From: Leptospira sp.
GTDB taxonomy: Bacteria > Spirochaetota > Leptospiria > Leptospirales > Leptospiraceae
Length of the DNA: 64,000 bases
Assembly: GCA_034439575.1 (NCBI GenBank)
Contig: JAWXAQ010000012.1
Location: 96,001 to 160,000 of the forward strand
Direction of reading: 5' to 3'
Positions 22,681-31,854 of this stretch are shown in pieces (the stretch's first letter is position 1; every line of letters starts with the position of its first letter). The notes below the pieces were generated by a model. The model searched no databases and was not told the DNA's origin. It saw only the letters and a list, made by a program, of their open reading frames with translations. The position numbers and the translations under genes were made by a program.

Positions 22681-24621
22681 ATCCGAATTTGCTTTGCCAA
22701 ACCATTCTACCATAAATTGTAAACTGGTTTGGCCACGAAACGTATTGGTTTCAAGACTACCCACTAAATCAATAGTATCAACCTTAGATATTAAATTTTG
22801 AAATTCGTCTCCTTTATTCCAAATCATATATTTCAAAGAACCACTTCCCATACAATGAAACTTTATATGTTTGCCACCACTAAGTGGAGTTAAGTGAAAT
22901 GCTTTCACAGCTTTTAAGCCTAGTTTAATATCTGGATTTCCTTGTCCAAAGGGTTCTAAATCCTTCCATTCTTTAAAGAGTTTATCATTTATTTCTTCAG
23001 GTCTGATTGTTAGATCTGTTATATAATCATATTCATTTTTATTTGAATGTGAATCATTTAACCATTGTTCTGCTTTTGTGTAAAGTATAGATTCCAGTTT
23101 GGGAATGTTTTCTAACAAAATGGAAAAACCTGCCGCTTCTGGATGGCCACCATAGTGCAAAAATAAATCAGAAAGGGAATTCAATAGTCCAAGAGCATTT
23201 TCTTTGCCATAACATCGTATAGATCCTCTCGCATCGCCATTATCAGGTGTTAAAAAAATGGCTGGTCTCTTATATGTATTAATCATTTTTGTGGCGACAA
23301 TGCCACTGACACCAGGTTCCATATCTGGCTCATAACAAAATACGATAGGTTTTTCCGTTCTTTCTGGTTTTCTTAGGAAATAACGTTCCATGCGATCTAC
23401 ATTTCTTTTGGTTCTTTCTTTTCTATCTTCATTAATTTGTAACAAATCTCTAGCACGTTTAGTGGCAATGTTTATATCTTCACTTAATAGTAGTTTTACG
23501 GCTTCTTCGGTTTTACCCATTCTTCCTGCGGCATTGAGAGCAGGGCCGATGGACCAACCCAAGTCTTTTGTGGAAAGTTTATCTTTGGATAATTTTAATT
23601 CATTAAGCAATGCTCTCGTACCAAAACGTTTGCTTTGGAATTCAGGATCTAAACTTTTACGTAAGGAAAGAATAGCTAACTTAACAATCATTCGATTTTC
23701 ACCAGTCAATGGCATCATATCTGTGATCGTACCTATACCTGCTAAATCTACTTCTTCCAATAAAGAATCATATGAACCGGGTATTTGATTGTTTTGGTAA
23801 AAAAATAAAAATCTTTCCTCATCTAACGGAATTTCATTTTTGTTGAATGTATCTCTACTTGGATAAGGGTGAAGTTGGTATTCTGCGATTTCATTTTCAC
23901 TGAGTGAAACGATTAAACCATTTCTAAAATAAGTATCCCCTGCAGGATCCTTTTTGATATAAACTTTTCCAAATTCATCACTTAACCTGAATAATATGGC
24001 ATGAATCAATTTAAAGGAAATGACAGCTGTGCAGATTTTTTTCTCAGGATATTTTGAATCAATTCGCCTTGGGCTGATTAAAAAAGTTTTTTCAGGAATT
24101 CTGATTGGTATCTCATGATGATCAAGGACTATTACTTGCATTCCCATTTTTGTCAGGGAATCAATTTCATCTCCTTGCGAAGATCCAAAATCAAGAGTGA
24201 TTAAAATATCAGGATTTATTTTCTTAATTTTTTGAATCGCTTCTGTACATAAACCATATGGATCGCTATCGGATGAGGTAACGACAGTTAATTTTAGATC
24301 TTGGAAATATGGATGTGATTTTAAAAAGAAAGCAAGTAAACAAGTGGAAGAAACCCCATCTGAATCCCTATCACCATAAAGTAAGATATGTTTATTATTT
24401 TTATGTGCATTTAGTATACATTCAACAGTTTCTAAAATGTCAGGAAGGGAAAAGGGGGAATGAAGGAATGCGAAACTCGTTTGTAAAAATTCGTGAGGAG
24501 GAAGGATTTTTAATTCTTCTCTCCTATCTACGAAGTACCGAAGTAATGGTTTTTTGGAAGTGGTTTGTGCTCTGATTTCGGCAGGAGTCGGGCCGAACAG
24601 AACCTTTGTTACATGATGCAA
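22669..24621 (-). CDS. recJ: Single-stranded-DNA-specific exonuclease
   Basis: [50 protein letters not shown]. Confidence 0.93.
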
Positions 24622-24929
24622 TTGCCGATAATTTTGGAACCAGATTCCACTTCGAGGCCAGGAGTTTTTATATCTCCGACAACTTTACCAGGTTTTTTTA
24701 ATTCCACTTTTTCTTTGGCTTCCACATTGCCCTTTAAATTGCCAAGCACAAGAAGTGAGCCGACTTCTACATCAGCTTCCACATCACCTGTTTCATCTAT
24801 AATCAATTTACCAGGAGAAGTGATGGTGCCTTTGAATTGACCTTTGATCTTTAGAGTTTGGTTGAAGGAAAGAGTCCCTCTAAAACTAATATCATCATTT
24901 ATGATTGTGTCTACTGATTCGTCTTTCAT
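24609..24929 (-). CDS. Bactofilin (polymer-forming cytoskeletal protein)
   Basis: TIINDDISFRGTL...G.VEADV...G.LKGNV...[24 protein letters not shown] beta-helix pattern. Confidence 0.92.
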   Translation of the reverse strand: MKDESVDTIINDDISFRGTLSFNQTLKIKGQFKGTITSPGKLIIDETGDVEADVEVGSLLVLGNLKGNVEAKEKVELKKPGKVVGDIKTPGLEVESGSKIIGNCIM

Positions 24930-25077
24930 AACTTCTGGATAGGATGATGTGCGACATTTCTTTGGCAACTAGGTTCCTAAAATCCAAACATGTGATCGTT
25001 CAAAAAAGTGCGCCTTTTTGGTTTTTTACTGTTGAATCCTGAGTTTCACCTCAGAGAATGGAAGTGGGCGTTCGTTT

Positions 25078-25404
25078 TTGAAATTACAACAGGTTTTAGA
25101 TACATTTTTTTTAATCATACTCGCCATTTTCATCAATGTAAATGTCATTGATGATCGTTTTGTATCCCCATTAGAAGACTTAAGCCACCAATACCAGTCC
25201 TACGAATTAGAGGAAACCACGCGCATTCTTTCTGTCGCAAGTAAGAAACAAGATCAATTTAAAGTAAGTCTAAGTTTCAAACTTGAGTATCCTGAGAATC
25301 AAACGACAGTGCTCGTAAAATTCCCCAAAGACTGTTTTTATAATTTTGCTACAAATTTACTCAAATCTCACTATATTAGTCTCCCGCCACCTAGTTTGGT
25401 CTGA
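25078..25404 (+). CDS. Upstream leader ORF with N-terminal hydrophobic segment and C-terminal LPPP; candidate arrest peptide controlling czcA
   Basis: TTG start; FFLIILAIFINVNV; ends SHYISLPPPSLV; 66 nt before czcA; the 3' end can pair with the czcA SD. Confidence 0.7.
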   Translation: MKLQQVLDTFFLIILAIFINVNVIDDRFVSPLEDLSHQYQSYELEETTRILSVASKKQDQFKVSLSFKLEYPENQTTVLVKFPKDCFYNFATNLLKSHYISLPPPSLV

Positions 25405-25458
25405 TTCTTGCTTAATAATTGGTAAGACCAAACCAATTCAAATTTTAACATAGGGGAG
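25381..25458 (+). promoter_or_regulatory. SD-sequestering RNA structure with an alternative hairpin upstream of czcA
   Basis: GTTTGGTCT(25394-25402)/AGACCAAAC(25425-25433) perfect 9-bp stem; CTCC(25381-84)+CCTA(25390-93) pair with TAGGGGAG(25451-58); alternative AATTGGT(25417-23)/ACCAATT(25432-38). Confidence 0.6.
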
Positions 25459-25470
25459 GTTTTCGGAATT

Positions 25471-28400
25471 ATGTTAGAGAAAATCATACAATTTTCCATT
25501 CAAAAAAGAGCGACAGTTCTCGTTATCACGGCTGTCCTAACAGTCGTCGGATTTTATAATGCCTTACATCTTTCTATTGATGCGATTCCAGATGTAACAA
25601 ACGTCCAAGTATCGGCTGTCACATCCGTTCCAGGTCTTTCCCCTTTGGAAGTGGAACAATTTATCACATATCCCGTCGAACTAGAGTTTAACGGGATGCC
25701 TAAAGTAACAGAAATTCGATCTATCTCACGAACTGGTGTCAGTTCCGTTACAGTCATTTTTGAAGATGGAACAGATATTTATTTTGCCAGACAATTGGTA
25801 AATGAAAGGTTAAAACAAGCTGAAAATTATATTCCTAAATCTTATGGTCGTCCTGAACTATCACCAATTTCCACAGGTCTTGGTGATATTTATGAATTTG
25901 TTTTGGTTTCAGAAACTCATACACCGGAAGAACTTCGCACGACCATGGAGTGGGAAGTCGCCCGTCAGCTAAGATCCGTTAAGGGAATCATCGATGTTAA
26001 CGTTGTGGGTGGAGATGCGAAACAATTTCAGATCAAAATCGATCCAAGACGTTTATTATCCTTAAATTTAACTCTATCTCATATCACAAAAGCATTAGAA
26101 GGTGCGAATATCAATTTGGGTGGTGGGTACATCCAAAAAGGCGAAGAACAATTTGTGATTCGTGGAGAAAGCCAATTTAAGTCTATCGAAGACATTAGTG
26201 CTTTATCTGTTAGGACTTCTAAAGACGGAATTCCGATTACATTGGCACAAATTGCTAAAGTAGAAACTGGTCCTGCTCTCAGATTTGGTTTATCCACAAA
26301 AAACGGAAAACGAGAAGTAGTGAGTGGCACAGCGATGATGTTACTTGGCAGTAACTCACTCGAAGTTGTAGAAAGAGTAAAACTAAAAATGAAAGATATC
26401 GAATCTCGTTTGCCAAACGGGATGAAGATTGAAGTTTATTATGATCGTTCAGAATTTATTGGACGAACTCTTTCTACAGTTTTTACGAATTTAGTTGAAG
26501 CCGCAATCATAGTCCTTGTTTGTTTGATTCTCACTTTGGGGACAGTCAAGGGTGCGGTCGCAGTTGCCTTGGCCATTCCCGTTTCTATGCTCATTGCTAC
26601 CATCCTAATGAATGCCTTTGGTATCGTTGGAAATTTGATGTCACTTGGAGCACTCGACTTTGGTTTACTGGTCGATGGTTCTATCGTAATGCTTGAATCC
26701 ACCTTACATGGGTTTATTGTCCGTAAGAGTTTTTTACTGACTAAAAATACAGCCCAAGATATGGAAGATGGGATAGAAGAAGTCATCACTGAGTCTTGTA
26801 TGAAAGTTGTACGCGCATCAGCATTTAGTGTGGGAATCATATTACTTGTTTATCTACCTCTAATGACCTTGGAAGGTGTGGAAGGGCGTATGTTTCGTCC
26901 TATGGCCATAACCGTAGCCTTCGCCTTAGGTGCCGCTCTTTTGTATTCGATTACTACGTTTCCCGCTTTAATGACTTTGATTTATAAGAAACCTTTGCTT
27001 CATGAATCCGTATTTTGGGAAAAATTCCAACATAAGTATTTTGATATTTTAACTTACGGCATGAAGTTTAAAAAACAATTTGCACTGACTGGTTTAGGCT
27101 TAGTGTTGTTTTCTTTGTTAGTTGGTGGTTCACTTGGATCAGAATTTTTGCCTCGCATTGATGAGGGTGAGATCGCTGTGGATATCAAACGTCTACCTTC
27201 CACTGCCATCAATCATTCCAGAGATTTAAATTTAGAGATAGAAAAAGTTTTATTAAAATTCCCAGAAGTGATCTCAGTTGTTTCTAAACAAGGAAGAGGT
27301 GAATCCGCCGCTGAACCCATTGGCTCTGAAGAAGGTGAGGCGATGGTAAAGCTTAGACCTAAAAAAGAATGGGTCACCGCCAAAGACCGCGAACATCTGA
27401 TGGAACAAATGAAACATGCCATCAATGACAGTGTGCCTTCCTCTTATATAAGTTTATCACAACCCATCGAAAATAGAGTGAATGCATTGTTATCTGGTTC
27501 CAAAGCAGATATCGTTATCAAAATTTATGGTGATGATCTTAAGACCCTAAAAGGTATCGCAGACAATTATGCATCTAAAATCAAAAAGATCAATGGTGCA
27601 GGTGACTTAAGGGTTCAAAAACTTCTTGGGTTACCTTTGTTAGAAATCAAAATGAATCGCTCTAAGATGGCACGTTATGGTGTGCGAGCCGAAGAAGTAT
27701 TAACTACCATTGAAACACTTCGAGTCGGATTTAATGCCGGTAAGGTGTATGAAGGATACAAACGATTTGATTTGATAGTCCGTCTTGATGCCGATGTGCG
27801 TGACATCGACGTGATAGAAAATGTACCCATCATGACAGAGTTAGGTGGCACGGTACCTCTTGGGCAAGTGACTGACATTGTTATGACAGAAGGGCCTGCG
27901 GCACTTTACCATGAAGGTTTAAAACGAAGGATACTTGTAGAAGTAAACGTTCGTGGTCGGGATATGATTGGTTTTGTGAATGAAGTGCAGGCTGCGACAA
28001 ATGCAATCGAAACAAATTTACCCGATGGCTATTATGTGGATTGGGGTGGTCAGTTCGAAAACTTCACAAGAGCCAAGGCAAGGCTTGGCCTTGTAATTCC
28101 AATTGCCGGTGCCATTATTTTTGCTATGTTATTTATCGCATTTGGCAGCGTCTATTATGCCTTAGGTGTTTTTATGCTAGTGCCCCTTTCCTTATCAGGT
28201 GGAATTTTATCCCTTGTCCTTCGGGGTTTACCATTTTCTATCCCCGCAGGTGTTGGTTTTATTGCTGCTGCTGGAATCTCGGTCCTTAACGGGGTGGTGT
28301 ATGCCTCGGCATTGAAAGACCAACTGAAAATTACTAAAGATCCGAGTAAGGCCGTTGTCGAAGCTGCAGTCTATACACTAAGAGCTGTGGCCACAACAGA

Positions 28401-28728
28401 ACTTGTGGCGATCATAGGATTTTTACCAATGGCGATTGCTTCGTCTGCTGGTGCGGAAGTGCAAAGACCACTTGCGACTGTGGTCATGGGTGGGGTTCTT
28501 GTTGCGACCATCCTTTCTCGATTTTTGTTACCGATCGCGTTTGAGTTCTTAGTGAAATTAGCACAAAAACAAGAATTGAGACAAGCCCAAAGAGAAAAGA
28601 AGATGAATGAATATTTTTTACAAGAAATGAAAAAAATCCATGATGAAGATGATTTAGAAGAAGAAAGTAAGCTAGAAGAGCAAATTTCTCCCAAAAAATC
28701 GCAGAAAAAAAAGAAGGATAAAGAATGA
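25471..28728 (+). CDS. czcA: CusA/CzcA-family heavy-metal efflux RND permease
   Basis: [58 protein letters not shown]. Confidence 0.93.
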
Positions 28729-29348
28729 AACCGAATTACTACGTAGCACACCCTTGGCATGGATTGGAACTTGGACCCAAAGCTCCAGATGAATTGGATG
28801 TTTTTATCGAACTCACTCCACAAGATCCAGTCAAATATGAAATTGATAAAGCTTCTGGCTTCATTCGTGTCGATAGACCACAAAAATATAGCAACCGTTC
28901 ACCGACACTTTATGGTTTTATCCCAAGAACTTATTCTGGCGAAGCATCGGGCAAACATTGTTCAAAAGTTATAGGTCGGGATAATATCCAAGGAGACGGA
29001 GATCCTATAGACATCTGTGTTCTTAGTGCTAGTCCAATTAACCATGGCAATACGATACTTTCTGTGATCCCGATCGGTGGACTCAGGATGATCGATAAAG
29101 GGGAAGCTGACGATAAAATTATCGCTGTTTTAAAAGGTGATGAAGTGTTTGGTTTAATGAAAGAAATATCAGATGCACCTCAAGCTCTTATCAATAAACT
29201 TCATCACTATTTTTTAACTTACAAACTTGATCCAAATTCTCCCTCAACGGGAACTGTTGAAATTGCAGAAGTGTATGGCCGTGAAGAGGCATTACGTGTG
29301 ATACAATTTGGTATAGAAGATTATATTAAGAAGTTTGTTACCGTATGA
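28725..29348 (+). CDS. ppa: Family I inorganic pyrophosphatase
   Basis: [44 protein letters not shown]. Confidence 0.95.
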
Positions 29349-30658
29349 AAAAAAAGTTTCTACTTTATTCTAGTCTAATTTTTATTTCAAGCTTACTTAC
29401 GTTAAACGCAGGTGAGAACGATGAGAGAAATATGGCGCCACTTTTTGTTGGTGATGATACGAATCTTCAAAACTTGGATGCAAAATGGAATTTAGAAGAG
29501 TTAGAAGCATTTGCCGTTTCAAGCAATCCATTGTATCTTCGTGAAAAACAAAATATTGGTATGGCTCGTGGAGATATTATCACTGCGAGTTTATATTATA
29601 ATCCTTTTGTGAACATGCAACAGCAGTTTATGGGTGCTCGTGCGAGTGCCGCAACTGGAATGCCGGAAACTTCGATTATTTATAACCAACCTTTTGATAT
29701 GAGTGGGGTCATTCCCCAAAGAGAAAAAGTCGCCAAACAAGAATTTATGGCGACGATTGCTAGTTTTAATGATTTTGATCGTTTGTTTCGATTGCGATTG
29801 CGCCAAAACTTTTGGACATATCTTTATGTAACGGAACAAATCAATTACCAAAAAGAATTCTTAGAAAATTATCAAGATTTACTGGACCTAACAAAACTTA
29901 GAGCCGAGAAAGGTGATATTTCCTTTTTGGAATATGACCGTCTAACTTTGGAGCGGATTCAGATCGACAGGGAGTATCGAAATGCCCGAATTTTAAGAGC
30001 ACAAGTTGTCAAAAATTTACGTGTACTTATTGGTATTCCTGATACTTCTGTACCTTTGGAAGTGAAAGGTCGTTTAGAGTTTTTTTCCACTAAGGATTTC
30101 GGGATTGATCTTACTGATTTTAATGTAGAAAATCGTCCAGATTTAGTAGCATTAAAAATTCGCCAACAGCGCGAAAGAATGAACATAGAATTAAAAAAGA
30201 GAGAAGTCATTCCTCCTTTAACTCTTGGGATCGAATATTTGAATAAGGGAAATGAAAATGTAACGGGCATATATGCGACGACTCCGTTACCTCTTTTTGA
30301 TAGAAAACAAGGTGAAATTTTAAAATTCGAAGAATCTCATAAAAAACTAGGCTTTGATGTGGAAGCCAAAAGAAATGAGATTGTCACAGAAATTTCCGCA
30401 GCTATTAAAGAATTACAAGCCCGCGAATCTCAGCTTCTCGAATATAAAGCATTTAATTTAATCAATAAAAATAAAGAAGTCCAAGAGAAATCAAGGTTAG
30501 CCTATATTAGGGGAGCATCAAACCTAGTTACTTTCTTAGAGGCTGAGAAAAATTACCTCAACGTATTACGCAGTTATTATGAAATTATTTATCTCTATTA
30601 TAATGCCTTGGAAGCATTTCGTGCTTCTGTAGGAAAAATGGACGCATCAGATTTATAG
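29345..30658 (+). CDS. TolC/CzcC-family outer-membrane efflux protein
   Basis: Signal peptide, KGDIS, NRPDL, PLPLFDRKQG and YxxG repeat pattern of the OEP family; operon context. Confidence 0.88.
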   Translation: MKKKFLLYSSLIFISSLLTLNAGENDERNMAPLFVGDDTNLQNLDAKWNLEELEAFAVSSNPLYLREKQNIGMARGDIITASLYYNPFVNMQQQFMGARASAATGMPETSIIYNQPFDMSGVIPQREKVAKQEFMATIASFNDFDRLFRLRLRQNFWTYLYVTEQINYQKEFLENYQDLLDLTKLRAEKGDISFLEYDRLTLERIQIDREYRNARILRAQVVKNLRVLIGIPDTSVPLEVKGRLEFFSTKDFGIDLTDFNVENRPDLVALKIRQQRERMNIELKKREVIPPLTLGIEYLNKGNENVTGIYATTPLPLFDRKQGEILKFEESHKKLGFDVEAKRNEIVTEISAAIKELQARESQLLEYKAFNLINKNKEVQEKSRLAYIRGASNLVTFLEAEKNYLNVLRSYYEIIYLYYNALEAFRASVGKMDASDL

Positions 30659-30666
30659 GAAAAATT

Positions 30667-31854
30667 ATGGCCAATTCAATTTTAAAATCAGCATTGTTTC
30701 GTAAAGCGAGTATTGGTGTATTGCTTGTTAGTTTAGGATATTTTGGTTATGTGAAATTTTTTGCTTCTGGTAAAAAAACAGAAAGTCTTTCTGAAGATAA
30801 ATCCAGATTCAAAATTTCAGAAGAAATACAAAAGAATCATCCATTTTCAGTGGTTTATTTAGAAGAAAGAGCTGTTGAAGAAGAATTGCAATTGCCAGGC
30901 ACAGTTTCGTATGACATGAATAATGTGGCAAAAGTAGGATCTAGAGTCAATGGACGTATCCTTTCAGTATTTGTAAAAGAAGGCGATCGCGTCAAAAAAG
31001 GCACGCCCTTGGCATCCCTTCAGTCTATAGAACTTGGATCAACAGAAGCTAATTACCTTAAGGCGAGAGCTAGACTCGAAGCTTTAAAAGTACAAGCCGA
31101 TCGTGCTAAAGAATTATACGAAAAAAAAGTAACCTCTGCCAAAGAATATGAAATGTCGCTTATGGATTATAAATCTGTAAAAGCGGATATGGAAACAAGT
31201 AGAAATGCATTAGAAAACTTAGGTTTAAATGATGCTGAAATTTCAAATTTGGAAGCTGGAAAATACAATTCCAAAAATTTATACATTCGGACACCTATTT
31301 CTGGTTCAGTGACAGTCCGTGAGGCTATCATTGGCCAATCTGTAAATGCTCGTGATAATCTTTTTACAGTCGCCGACTTATCTGTGTTATGGATCAATCT
31401 GGAAGTATTTGAAAAAGATCTTAATAGCATTCGAAAAGGAAACGAAGCAAAAGTCATTCCTATCGGTTCATCCAATGAAGACTCATTGAAAGCTGTCGTT
31501 TCTTATGTATCCGAAATCATCGATCCTGTGAAAAAAACAGCTGAGATTCGACTCGAAGTTCGTAATGCAAATGGCAAACTAAGGCCTGGACAAAGTGTAA
31601 CCGCAAGTGTAAAAGGGATGATTGCGGAAAATAATTTGAATAAAATTCGCGTTGTTCCTACGGAATGCATTCACAAAATAGAAGGCGAAAATTTTATTTT
31701 TATCAGAAACACCGATGCCTCCTTTACGGCAAAGAAAGTCACCCTTGGTAAATCGTATGAGAATTGGGTGGAGATCAAATCTGGTGCGGAAGGCACAGAT
31801 GCGATAGTGAAAGATGGATCTTTTGTTTTGAAAAGTGAATACCTAAAATTATAA
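30667..31854 (+). CDS. RND efflux periplasmic adaptor (CzcB-like)
   Basis: N-terminal anchor, RVNGRI..VKEGDRVKKG, IRTPISG, ADLSVLW, LRPG. Confidence 0.92.
   Translation: MANSILKSALFRKASIGVLLVSLGYFGYVKFFASGKKTESLSEDKSRFKISEEIQKNHPFSVVYLEERAVEEELQLPGTVSYDMNNVAKVGSRVNGRILSVFVKEGDRVKKGTPLASLQSIELGSTEANYLKARARLEALKVQADRAKELYEKKVTSAKEYEMSLMDYKSVKADMETSRNALENLGLNDAEISNLEAGKYNSKNLYIRTPISGSVTVREAIIGQSVNARDNLFTVADLSVLWINLEVFEKDLNSIRKGNEAKVIPIGSSNEDSLKAVVSYVSEIIDPVKKTAEIRLEVRNANGKLRPGQSVTASVKGMIAENNLNKIRVVPTECIHKIEGENFIFIRNTDASFTAKKVTLGKSYENWVEIKSGAEGTDAIVKDGSFVLKSEYLKL

Follow-up and report, generated by a model that had tools for sequence, protein, structure and literature searches.

In water-dwelling Leptospira, a small open reading frame (ORF) that always ends in Leu-Pro-Pro-Pro (LPPP) stands before czcA, a heavy-metal efflux pump gene, and it most likely acts as a ribosome-pausing sensor. 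We analyzed this ORF in the window, that is, the whole 64,000-nucleotide (nt) stretch of Leptospira sp. DNA under study (contig JAWXAQ010000012.1, positions 96,001 to 160,000), and in related genomes. The reading that we prefer, at a probability of roughly 0.45, is that the ORF encodes a membrane-targeted nascent-chain sensor and would serve as a regulatory leader for the operon czcA-ppa-czcC-czcB in the manner of CutF, CruR, SecM, and MifM. An earlier sequence-only reading of the window had also proposed a cis-acting leader for this operon; a conserved gene with LPPP, a length, and a spacer like those of CutF, CruR, and SecM is indeed present, but the specific RNA switch that it described was not supported.

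Position, anatomy, and conservation of the small ORF

The ORF and its parts are located as follows.

25078-25404, + strand: small ORF of 108 codons with a TTG start; stop codon TGA at 25402-04; C terminus SHYISLPPPSLV
25081-25149, + strand: hydrophobic helix, residues 2-24 (AlphaFold2 helix and alignment)
25150-25224, + strand: acidic conserved motif DDRFVSPLEDL..QYQSYELEETTR, residues 25-49
Residues 50-95, + strand: variable; the tail reads ..HYISLPPPSLV
25381-25392, + strand: Leu-Pro-Pro-Pro codons CTC CCG CCA CCT, candidate ribosome pause site three codons before the stop; Pro-Pro-Pro (PPP) is residues 103-105

In the window, 66 nt separate the stop codon from the czcA ATG (25471), and the sequence-only reading had given all coordinates of the 108-amino-acid (aa) ORF, its hydrophobic N terminus, its ending, and this spacing correctly. 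A protein search matched the ORF in 40 of 41 genomes of the window's genus, the sole missing genome being 67% complete, and 41 copies from 40 genomes were read for tail, spacing, and start codon. In all 41 the reading frame is open, the spacer to czcA measures 64 to 86 nt, and the C terminus is LPPP-x-L-[AV]-stop. The length is exactly 108 codons in 39 of 40 anchored ORFs, even though residues 50-95 cannot be aligned between the groups that start with TTG and with GTG. The codon at the aligned start is TTG or GTG in 29 of 30 loci and ATG in none. Among 29 GTG-start ORFs (405 pairs), the ratio of nonsynonymous to synonymous divergence (dN/dS) is 0.02 for residues 2-50, 0.19 for residues 51-95, and 0.11 for residues 96-108. 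Synonymous divergence (dS) in the first 50 codons (window 25081-25227 and orthologues) is 0.36, about one third of that in the middle (1.0), which hints at an additional nucleotide-level constraint there.

The genus alignment has invariant columns at N20, N22, D25, D26, R27, F28, V29, P31, E33, D34, L35, Y39, E43, E45, T47, T48, and R49. By inspection, the N terminus is basic and leads into a hydrophobic helix of 15 to 20 residues with no obvious cleavage site; judged from its sequence, this segment looks like an uncleaved anchor. AlphaFold2 placed helices at residues 2-24, 32-56, and 84-101 with a mean predicted local distance difference test score of 62 and a predicted template modeling score (pTM) of 0.24, giving no confident fold. 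The ORF belongs to no Pfam family (no match at E ≤ 0.01) or NCBIfam family, and a profile search of 1.84 billion representative proteins returned six clusters only, of which the named ones are hypothetical proteins from saprophytic Leptospira. None of these six contained the GTG-start form, which occurs in about thirty species and is absent from a 15-billion-protein collection; gene callers therefore apparently did not call it. The conservation, the anatomy, and the selection at the peptide level are direct observations, and by its sequence the ORF is clearly a real gene, conserved and translated-looking beyond chance.

The LPPP codons vary synonymously (Leu CTC/TTA/CTT/CTA; Pro CCA/CCG/CCT/CCC) while LPPP itself stays, which shows that selection acts on the peptide. 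PPP is rare in the window's genome: it occurs in 69 of 2709 ORFs of at least 200 aa and falls within the last 8 residues in 2 of the 2709. No other ORF among the 16110 small ones of the same genome combines a PPP tail with a large ORF no more than 150 nt downstream. A PPP run is a strong ribosome pause site that depends on elongation factor P (EF-P), and the EF-P gene (efp) is present in the genome. One genome of the genus (G007, contig C2; L053 and L074) has two ORF-czcA units, about 40 kb apart and in opposite orientation, that are identical from 30 nt before the ORF stop to the czcA ATG.

The tail in other Leptospiraceae

Orthologues of czcA are found in 114/114 Leptospiraceae genomes. We surveyed these genomes with iterated cross-genus profiles (A3, then A4; E ≤ 0.01) and found PPP-tailed small ORFs in 101 of them, with one to six matches each. 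By genus group, the counts are 40/40 (g1), 22/22 (g12), 24/24 (g13), 7/8 (g14), 2/2 (g3), 2/5 (g4), 2/4 (g7), and 1/1 (g8). Loci fetched from outside the genus carried the PPP tail, by batch, in 2, 1/2, 16/16, and 7/7 cases; their ORFs are about 103 to 135 aa long, with start codons assigned in this analysis, and have a hydrophobic N terminus, an acid-rich middle, and the PPP tail. Identical proteins are on record as hypothetical in L. tipperaryensis, L. yasudae, L. licerasiae, L. hartskeerlii, and others. Met1 and PPP are the only invariant positions in the cross-genus alignment, and when the profile of the window's family was compared with that of the g12/g13 Leptospira group, only the last 24 residues aligned (probability 59%, E 9.3e-5). 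The tail module of about 24 residues has the form [LIF][LI][NSYF][LI]PPP plus 1 to 7 residues. From these alignments the common part is therefore a C-terminal module, shared by descent or convergence, with the sensor part not shared.

The genes downstream of the tail differ. It precedes czcA in G048 and G046, and an outer-membrane factor gene (OEP) in at least four g14 loci and one g3 locus. Elsewhere it precedes a gene like those for membrane-fusion proteins (MFP), genes for Sulfatase-domain membrane proteins, a GerE-type regulator, an Alginate_exp-like protein, Proton_antipo_M and NADHdh proteins (a hyf-like operon), AdoMet_dc and Spermine_synth proteins (AdoMet decarboxylase and spermidine synthase, speDE), or several genes of unknown function. 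That the same tail stands before different operons favors a cis-acting, arrest-type leader. In the speDE case (L164, G072:C4, a g12 Leptospira; frame 465-863 in oriented coordinates), a PPP-tailed ORF (..HSLISLPPPTSSFKA) ends 102 nt before the AdoMet decarboxylase and spermidine synthase genes and is, on this arrangement, a candidate leader for polyamine synthesis.

Some loci have a hairpin of their own. Two paralogues, L161 (G023:C2, ..YLNLPPPV) and L159 (G082:C5, ..YLFLPPPV), are followed within about 20 nt by canonical GC-rich terminator hairpins and T runs, and for one of the two, no gene of 150 aa or more lies on the same strand within 400 nt. At L120 (G048:C1, g4), a terminator-like hairpin AAGCATT/AATGCTT with a T run lies 9 nt after the stop of the LPPP ORF, and the spacer to czcA is 113 nt; G044, the sister genome of G048, is without the ORF altogether.

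A sigma-54-like motif at the stop codon

A conserved motif of the sigma-54 -24/-12 type, which is absent from the sequence-only reading, lies over the stop codon of the small ORF.

25396-25412, + strand: TTGG-N8-TTGC(T), sigma-54-type -24/-12 promoter-like motif (motif match), overlapping the stop, the two codons before it, and the 8 nt after it

The pattern TTGG-N8-TTGC and its spacing are the sigma-54 -24/-12 promoter consensus. The motif scan matched at 25397-25412 with GG-N10-GC spacing, and the start site predicted from the motif match only is near 25423. TTGG is present in 35/35 and TTGC in 34/35 distinct tails; the final Leu is always TTG (35/35), unlike the Leu of LPPP with its four codons, which points to a constraint at the nucleotide level. 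Since such motifs are frequent by chance (4 found against 5.2 expected in the 64-kb window), the evidence lies in the conservation and not in the occurrence; the strict form TGGC-N7-TTGC[AT] is likewise not enriched genome-wide (42 found against about 32 expected). As a control, the 700 nt upstream of the genome's amtB genes were scanned, and the motif was found at 0/4, so that amtB provides no calibration. No upstream activator site was identified. The motif is missing in the genus copy L072 and in G111 and G056, and no TTGC box follows the stop in G048; all four keep LPPP.

The genome encodes rpoN and three sigma-54 activators (contigs C8, C22, and C35 of G000; L031-L033), with the architectures GAF-GAF-AAA-HTH (705 aa), REC-AAA-HTH (452 aa), and GAF-AAA-HTH (499 aa); the REC-AAA-HTH activator lies about 3.5 kb from rpoN. 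Published text credits saprophytic Leptospira with one sigma-54 activator, EbpA. Taking motif and conservation together, we consider it about even odds that the promoter at the end of the ORF is real, and if it is, czcA would also be transcribed independently of the small ORF. Four wastewater runs from one study yielded short contigs 93 to 99% identical to window positions 24600-27000, including contigs 98 to 99% identical over the ORF and spacer (25079-25253, 25355-25564, 25360-25499, and 25380-25537). These runs are labeled RNA-Seq and are probably DNA; the contigs cannot show transcripts or their ends.

Comparison with known leader peptides

The closest parallel is CutF of Rhodobacter capsulatus. 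In the CutF reports, CutF (from cutFOG) is a protein of 118 aa that carries a signal peptide and a CxxxC motif and has PPP two residues ahead of its stop codon, and a stall at PPP melts a stem-loop that covers the next gene's ribosome-binding site (bioRxiv 10.1101/2022.11.11.516240; 10.1101/2025.02.05.636593). OEP, ACR_tran, and HlyD_D23 genes often follow CutF-like ones, and in Spirochaetota, CutF-like proteins are termed 'scarce' (bioRxiv 10.1101/2022.11.11.516240). The statement of the sequence-only reading that no such leader had been described in spirochaetes is therefore nearly right; literature searches on Leptospira arrest peptides and on DUF2946 in spirochaetes turned up no description of this element. 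The window and CutF share a small exported protein (118 aa in CutF, 108 here) encoded directly before a metal-detoxifying gene, an N-terminal targeting segment followed by a sensor motif, a short spacer with a stem-loop, and PPP shortly before the stop (two residues in CutF, three here). Of the properties used by a rule-based CutF-like filter (Ozturk et al. 2022/2023), the small ORF has those of length (108 aa), PP position (PPP 103-105), and neighbor (czcA 66 nt downstream); for the N-terminal signal peptide, it offers a basic N terminus and a hydrophobic helix with no obvious cleavage site. The differences are that the small ORF is without a Cys/His motif and conserves an Asp/Glu-rich one instead, that its hydrophobic segment looks like an uncleaved anchor, that shielding of the Shine-Dalgarno (SD) sequence by the stem-loop is not supported here, and that a sigma-54-like promoter motif overlaps the stop.

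CruR of Bordetella pertussis, as described in the CutF papers, is a DUF2946 member that binds copper through Cys and whose signal peptide is dispensable. It is likewise an upstream ORF with a proline-rich stall motif that exerts posttranscriptional control over a downstream metal-related gene, and its read-out is Rho-dependent termination and not unmasking of an SD, which may be one option for the Leptospira ORF. The latter, however, is neither a DUF2946 member nor Cys-bearing, and it precedes an efflux pump, whereas CruR controls an uptake gene. Across 301 spirochaete genomes, no DUF2946 match exceeded the cut-off, and the 3 weak matches contain stop codons. In a language-model search, the nearest named clusters were SecM_small (0.93) and two DUF2946 clusters (0.92), which we treat as leads only; 46% of the members of one DUF2946-named cluster carry the name CzcI (PF28244). 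CzcI is the small ORF heading czcNICBA in Cupriavidus metallidurans. Like the product of the Leptospira ORF, CzcI is small, exported, and encoded immediately ahead of a czc efflux operon, but there is no detectable similarity between the two. Peptides of the SecM, MifM, VemP, and RAPP types, as they have been described, have an N-terminal signal or membrane segment, a variable middle, and a conserved C-terminal segment within about 100 to 170 aa, as here, and control the next gene in cis via mRNA structure. These peptides differ from the Leptospira ORF in having another arrest motif; the genes downstream here are not Sec or YidC components, and arrest here is putative.

Proposed mechanism

Two further features of the mRNA enter into the mechanism that we consider.

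25394-25433, + strand: hairpin H1, perfect 9-bp stem GTTTGGTCT (25394-402) / AGACCAAAC (25425-33)
25451-25473, + strand: czcA ribosome-binding region TAGGGGAGG; SD core 25453-59, 11-nt spacer, ATG 25471-73

H1, a stem already recognized in the sequence-only reading, has the last codons and the first stop base in its 5' arm and the TTGC box in its loop. Of 2000 dinucleotide shuffles, 26 contain a perfect inverted repeat of at least 9 bp, and folding of the 45-nt hairpin gives a z score of -3.47; H1, which embeds the stop codon, is the only RNA feature that stands out, and it is moderately unusual. In 24 GTG-start relatives, an equivalent 6-bp helix at the stop codon keeps 89.6% of its pairing, and 2 of its pairs have changed on both sides, changes that probably represent one or two events.

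From the anatomy of the ORF we infer targeting, pausing, a ligand, and a read-out. The basic and hydrophobic N terminus would insert the chain cotranslationally into the membrane, so that the conserved acidic segment (residues 25-49) would then be periplasmic. With a linker of fixed length, this segment would have just emerged when the ribosome is at Pro-Pro-Pro, codons 103-105, and the dwell time there may be set by what the exported segment meets, for example, a divalent metal or the envelope's condition. While paused at this point, three codons ahead of the stop, the ribosome would cover the 5' arm of H1 and could thereby change the folding or the fate of the read-through transcript from the ORF into czcA; possible read-outs are refolding near the czcA start, termination, or access of Rho. 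The sigma-54-type promoter over the stop codon would probably provide a second, ORF-independent route to czcA transcription.

Evidence against the leader reading and a trans-acting alternative

Several results weigh against a sensor of this kind. The middle of the ORF is under purifying selection (dN/dS 0.19), as for a protein with a mature function. No Cys/His metal motif is conserved in the alignment, as the sequence-only reading had noted for CxxC, and none of 17/17 members matched DUF2946 (PF11162) at E ≤ 10. The terminator-bearing tail paralogues without a near downstream gene (L161) look, from their sequence, like stand-alone genes, and transcripts from the sigma-54-like promoter would lack the ORF and hence escape any control by it in cis. 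The RNA evidence points the same way. Covarying stems had been anticipated, and the two compensatory pairs in the H1-like helix of the 24 relatives agree with this, but across 13 lineage representatives the signal is lost (not significant; 1100/5000 permutations). The intergenic fold of the window (z = -0.63) is no better than shuffles, and over 17 spacers the mean z is about -1.15, with z ≤ -1.8 in only 4/17. With a ribosome modeled on Pro3, the probability that the window's SD is unpaired went from 0.18 to 0.17, with no opening. Finally, conservation of LPPP and of the spacing upstream of czcA was found as the sequence-only reading had expected, but no co-variation between the LPPP codons and the SD was detected.

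The main alternative, which fits part of this evidence and which we regard as somewhat unlikely, is a stable small envelope protein acting in trans, for instance, as a partner, accessory or sensory, of the pump or a signaling system. The LPPP tail would then be a structural, interaction, sorting, or degradation motif, and czcA would be expressed from its own sigma-54-type promoter. Purifying selection over the whole ORF, including its middle, is consistent with such a protein, as are the paralogues with a strong terminator of their own and no close downstream gene and the negative tests of an RNA switch, while the conserved TTGG-N8-TTGC with its fixed final TTG and the presence of rpoN with three activators would suit the separate promoter. 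However, the residues common across genera are only the last 24 or so, and they stand before unrelated operons, which one would not expect of a subunit specific to the pump; no fold is predicted by AlphaFold2 (pTM 0.24); the length of the ORF is constant while its middle diverges; and none of the genus copies starts with ATG. Counting against the separate promoter are the four loci that are without the motif or its TTGC box and keep LPPP and the lack of an identified activator site; the amtB control, which was blank, gave no calibration.

RNA structure and the proposed Shine-Dalgarno switch

The sequence-only reading had proposed a more specific device, which we now consider improbable: the LPPP codons would pair with the czcA SD around the 9-bp stem, and a stall at PPP would allow an alternative hairpin to form and leave the SD free.

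25417-23/25432-38, + strand: alternative 7-bp hairpin AATTGGT/ACCAATT, mutually exclusive with the 3' arm of H1 (sequence)

The segments themselves are where they had been placed (CTCC 25381-84, CCTA 25390-93, and SD region TAGGGGAG 25451-58), and pairs between the Pro codons and the SD are indeed present when 25378-25476 is folded at minimum energy. In four divergent loci, moreover, a modeled stall opens the SD (L012, 0.20 to 0.79; L072, 0.06 to 0.57; L071, 0.14 to 0.55; and L070, 0.04 to 0.45). Against this, the 99-nt fold has a z score of -0.68, with 42/200 shuffles folding equally well; the window's SD stays paired under the stall (0.17); and a codon-shuffled ORF tail occludes it equally (0.15), with 19/30 shuffles at or below the observed value. 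The AATTGGT/ACCAATT repeat is present in the sequence, but the hairpin was in none of the minimum-energy folds obtained. Over 36 distinct tail/SD combinations, cognate duplexes (-5.30) do not surpass noncognate ones (-5.18 kcal/mol; 1064/5000 permutations). The window's own duplex, at -10.2 kcal/mol the best among the SDs tested against this tail, owes its strength to a strong SD and to the anti-SD likeness of CCN codons, and the complementarity between LPPP codons and SD is this generic likeness. In the GTG-start group, the SD is no more than a weak AGGA located three nt ahead of the ATG; L022 is without an SD.

Some hairpin is present in every spacer examined. An RNAalifold consensus of 24 aligned spacers retained 2 invariant pairs only, because the middle hairpin cannot be aligned. 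As an intrinsic terminator, this middle hairpin was rejected for most loci, as at least five T within the 8 nt after the hairpin were found in only 3 of 40 distinct spacers; in the window, no intrinsic terminator (GC-rich stem plus T run) was found in 25380-25470. In 24500-26000, the three matches to Rfam families (E > 2 for each) all fell far short of the gathering score. As a conserved feature, the RNA switch of the sequence-only reading is not supported.

It is very improbable that conservation acts on nucleotides only (a CCN repeat or promoter DNA) in an untranslated ORF: CCNCC is anti-SD-like and the nucleotide motif TTGG-N8-TTGC overlaps the ORF end, but the open frame in 41/41 copies, the third-position variation, the Leu exchanges CTN <-> TTA, a dN/dS far below 1, and the retention of the tail in loci with unrelated downstream DNA all speak for translation.

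The efflux operon and the upstream region

The gene order czcA, ppa, OEP, and MFP given in the sequence-only reading was confirmed by Pfam and NCBIfam profile matches.

25471-28728, + strand: czcA (ACR_tran, 7.5e-244, Pfam; TIGR00914 CusA/CzcA, 1016 bits)
28725-29348, + strand: inorganic pyrophosphatase gene (Pyrophosphatase, 2.1e-41)
29345-30658, + strand: outer-membrane factor gene (OEP, 3.7e-31)
30667-31854, + strand: membrane-fusion protein gene (HlyD_D23, 1.8e-48)
24930-25077, no strand assigned: divergent promoter region separating the bactofilin gene from the small ORF (40 upstream regions compared by eye)
24609-24968, - strand: bactofilin gene, upstream of the small ORF and on the opposite strand

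The pyrophosphatase gene lies inside the efflux operon, its start overlapping the czcA stop and its stop overlapping the start of the outer-membrane factor gene; it is an unusual passenger for a czc operon. Upstream of the small ORF, the comparison by eye of the 40 regions revealed genus-conserved blocks at 24961-69 (TTTGGCAAC) and about 25002-11 (AAAAAAGTGC) and a TTGAAT box at 25032-37; the window alone showed a short inverted repeat, CTGAG/CTCAG (25039-43/25050-54). For the bactofilin gene, ATG 24929 is the probable start rather than TTG 24968, and the block GATTCGTCTTTCAT is kept in nearly all of the upstream regions compared.

Implications for Leptospiraceae

Taken as a family, the small ORF appears from the genomes surveyed to be an orphan, thiol-free spirochaetal lineage of proteins whose tail module is spread across Leptospiraceae. 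A wider and more doubtful extension of the leader reading is that Leptospiraceae, including species grouped with the pathogens and intermediates, use one portable C-terminal arrest module of about 24 residues (..h-h-[NS]-[LI]-PPP plus 1 to 7) fused to different exported sensors, which would gate czc efflux, speD-speE, a sulfatase/LtaS-like gene, and a hyf-like complex. In the window, such a module would read a periplasmic divalent-metal or envelope signal via carboxylates and not Cys/His, layered on a sigma-54 promoter in its own stop-codon region. Should the tail prove to cause arrest, spirochaetes would have their first regulatory nascent peptide, and a CutF-type sensor without thiol or imidazole ligands would widen the range of signals that such leaders can read. 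If this is true, the module before other operons in pathogenic-clade Leptospira would offer a handle on posttranscriptional control in a genus whose regulation is poorly understood.

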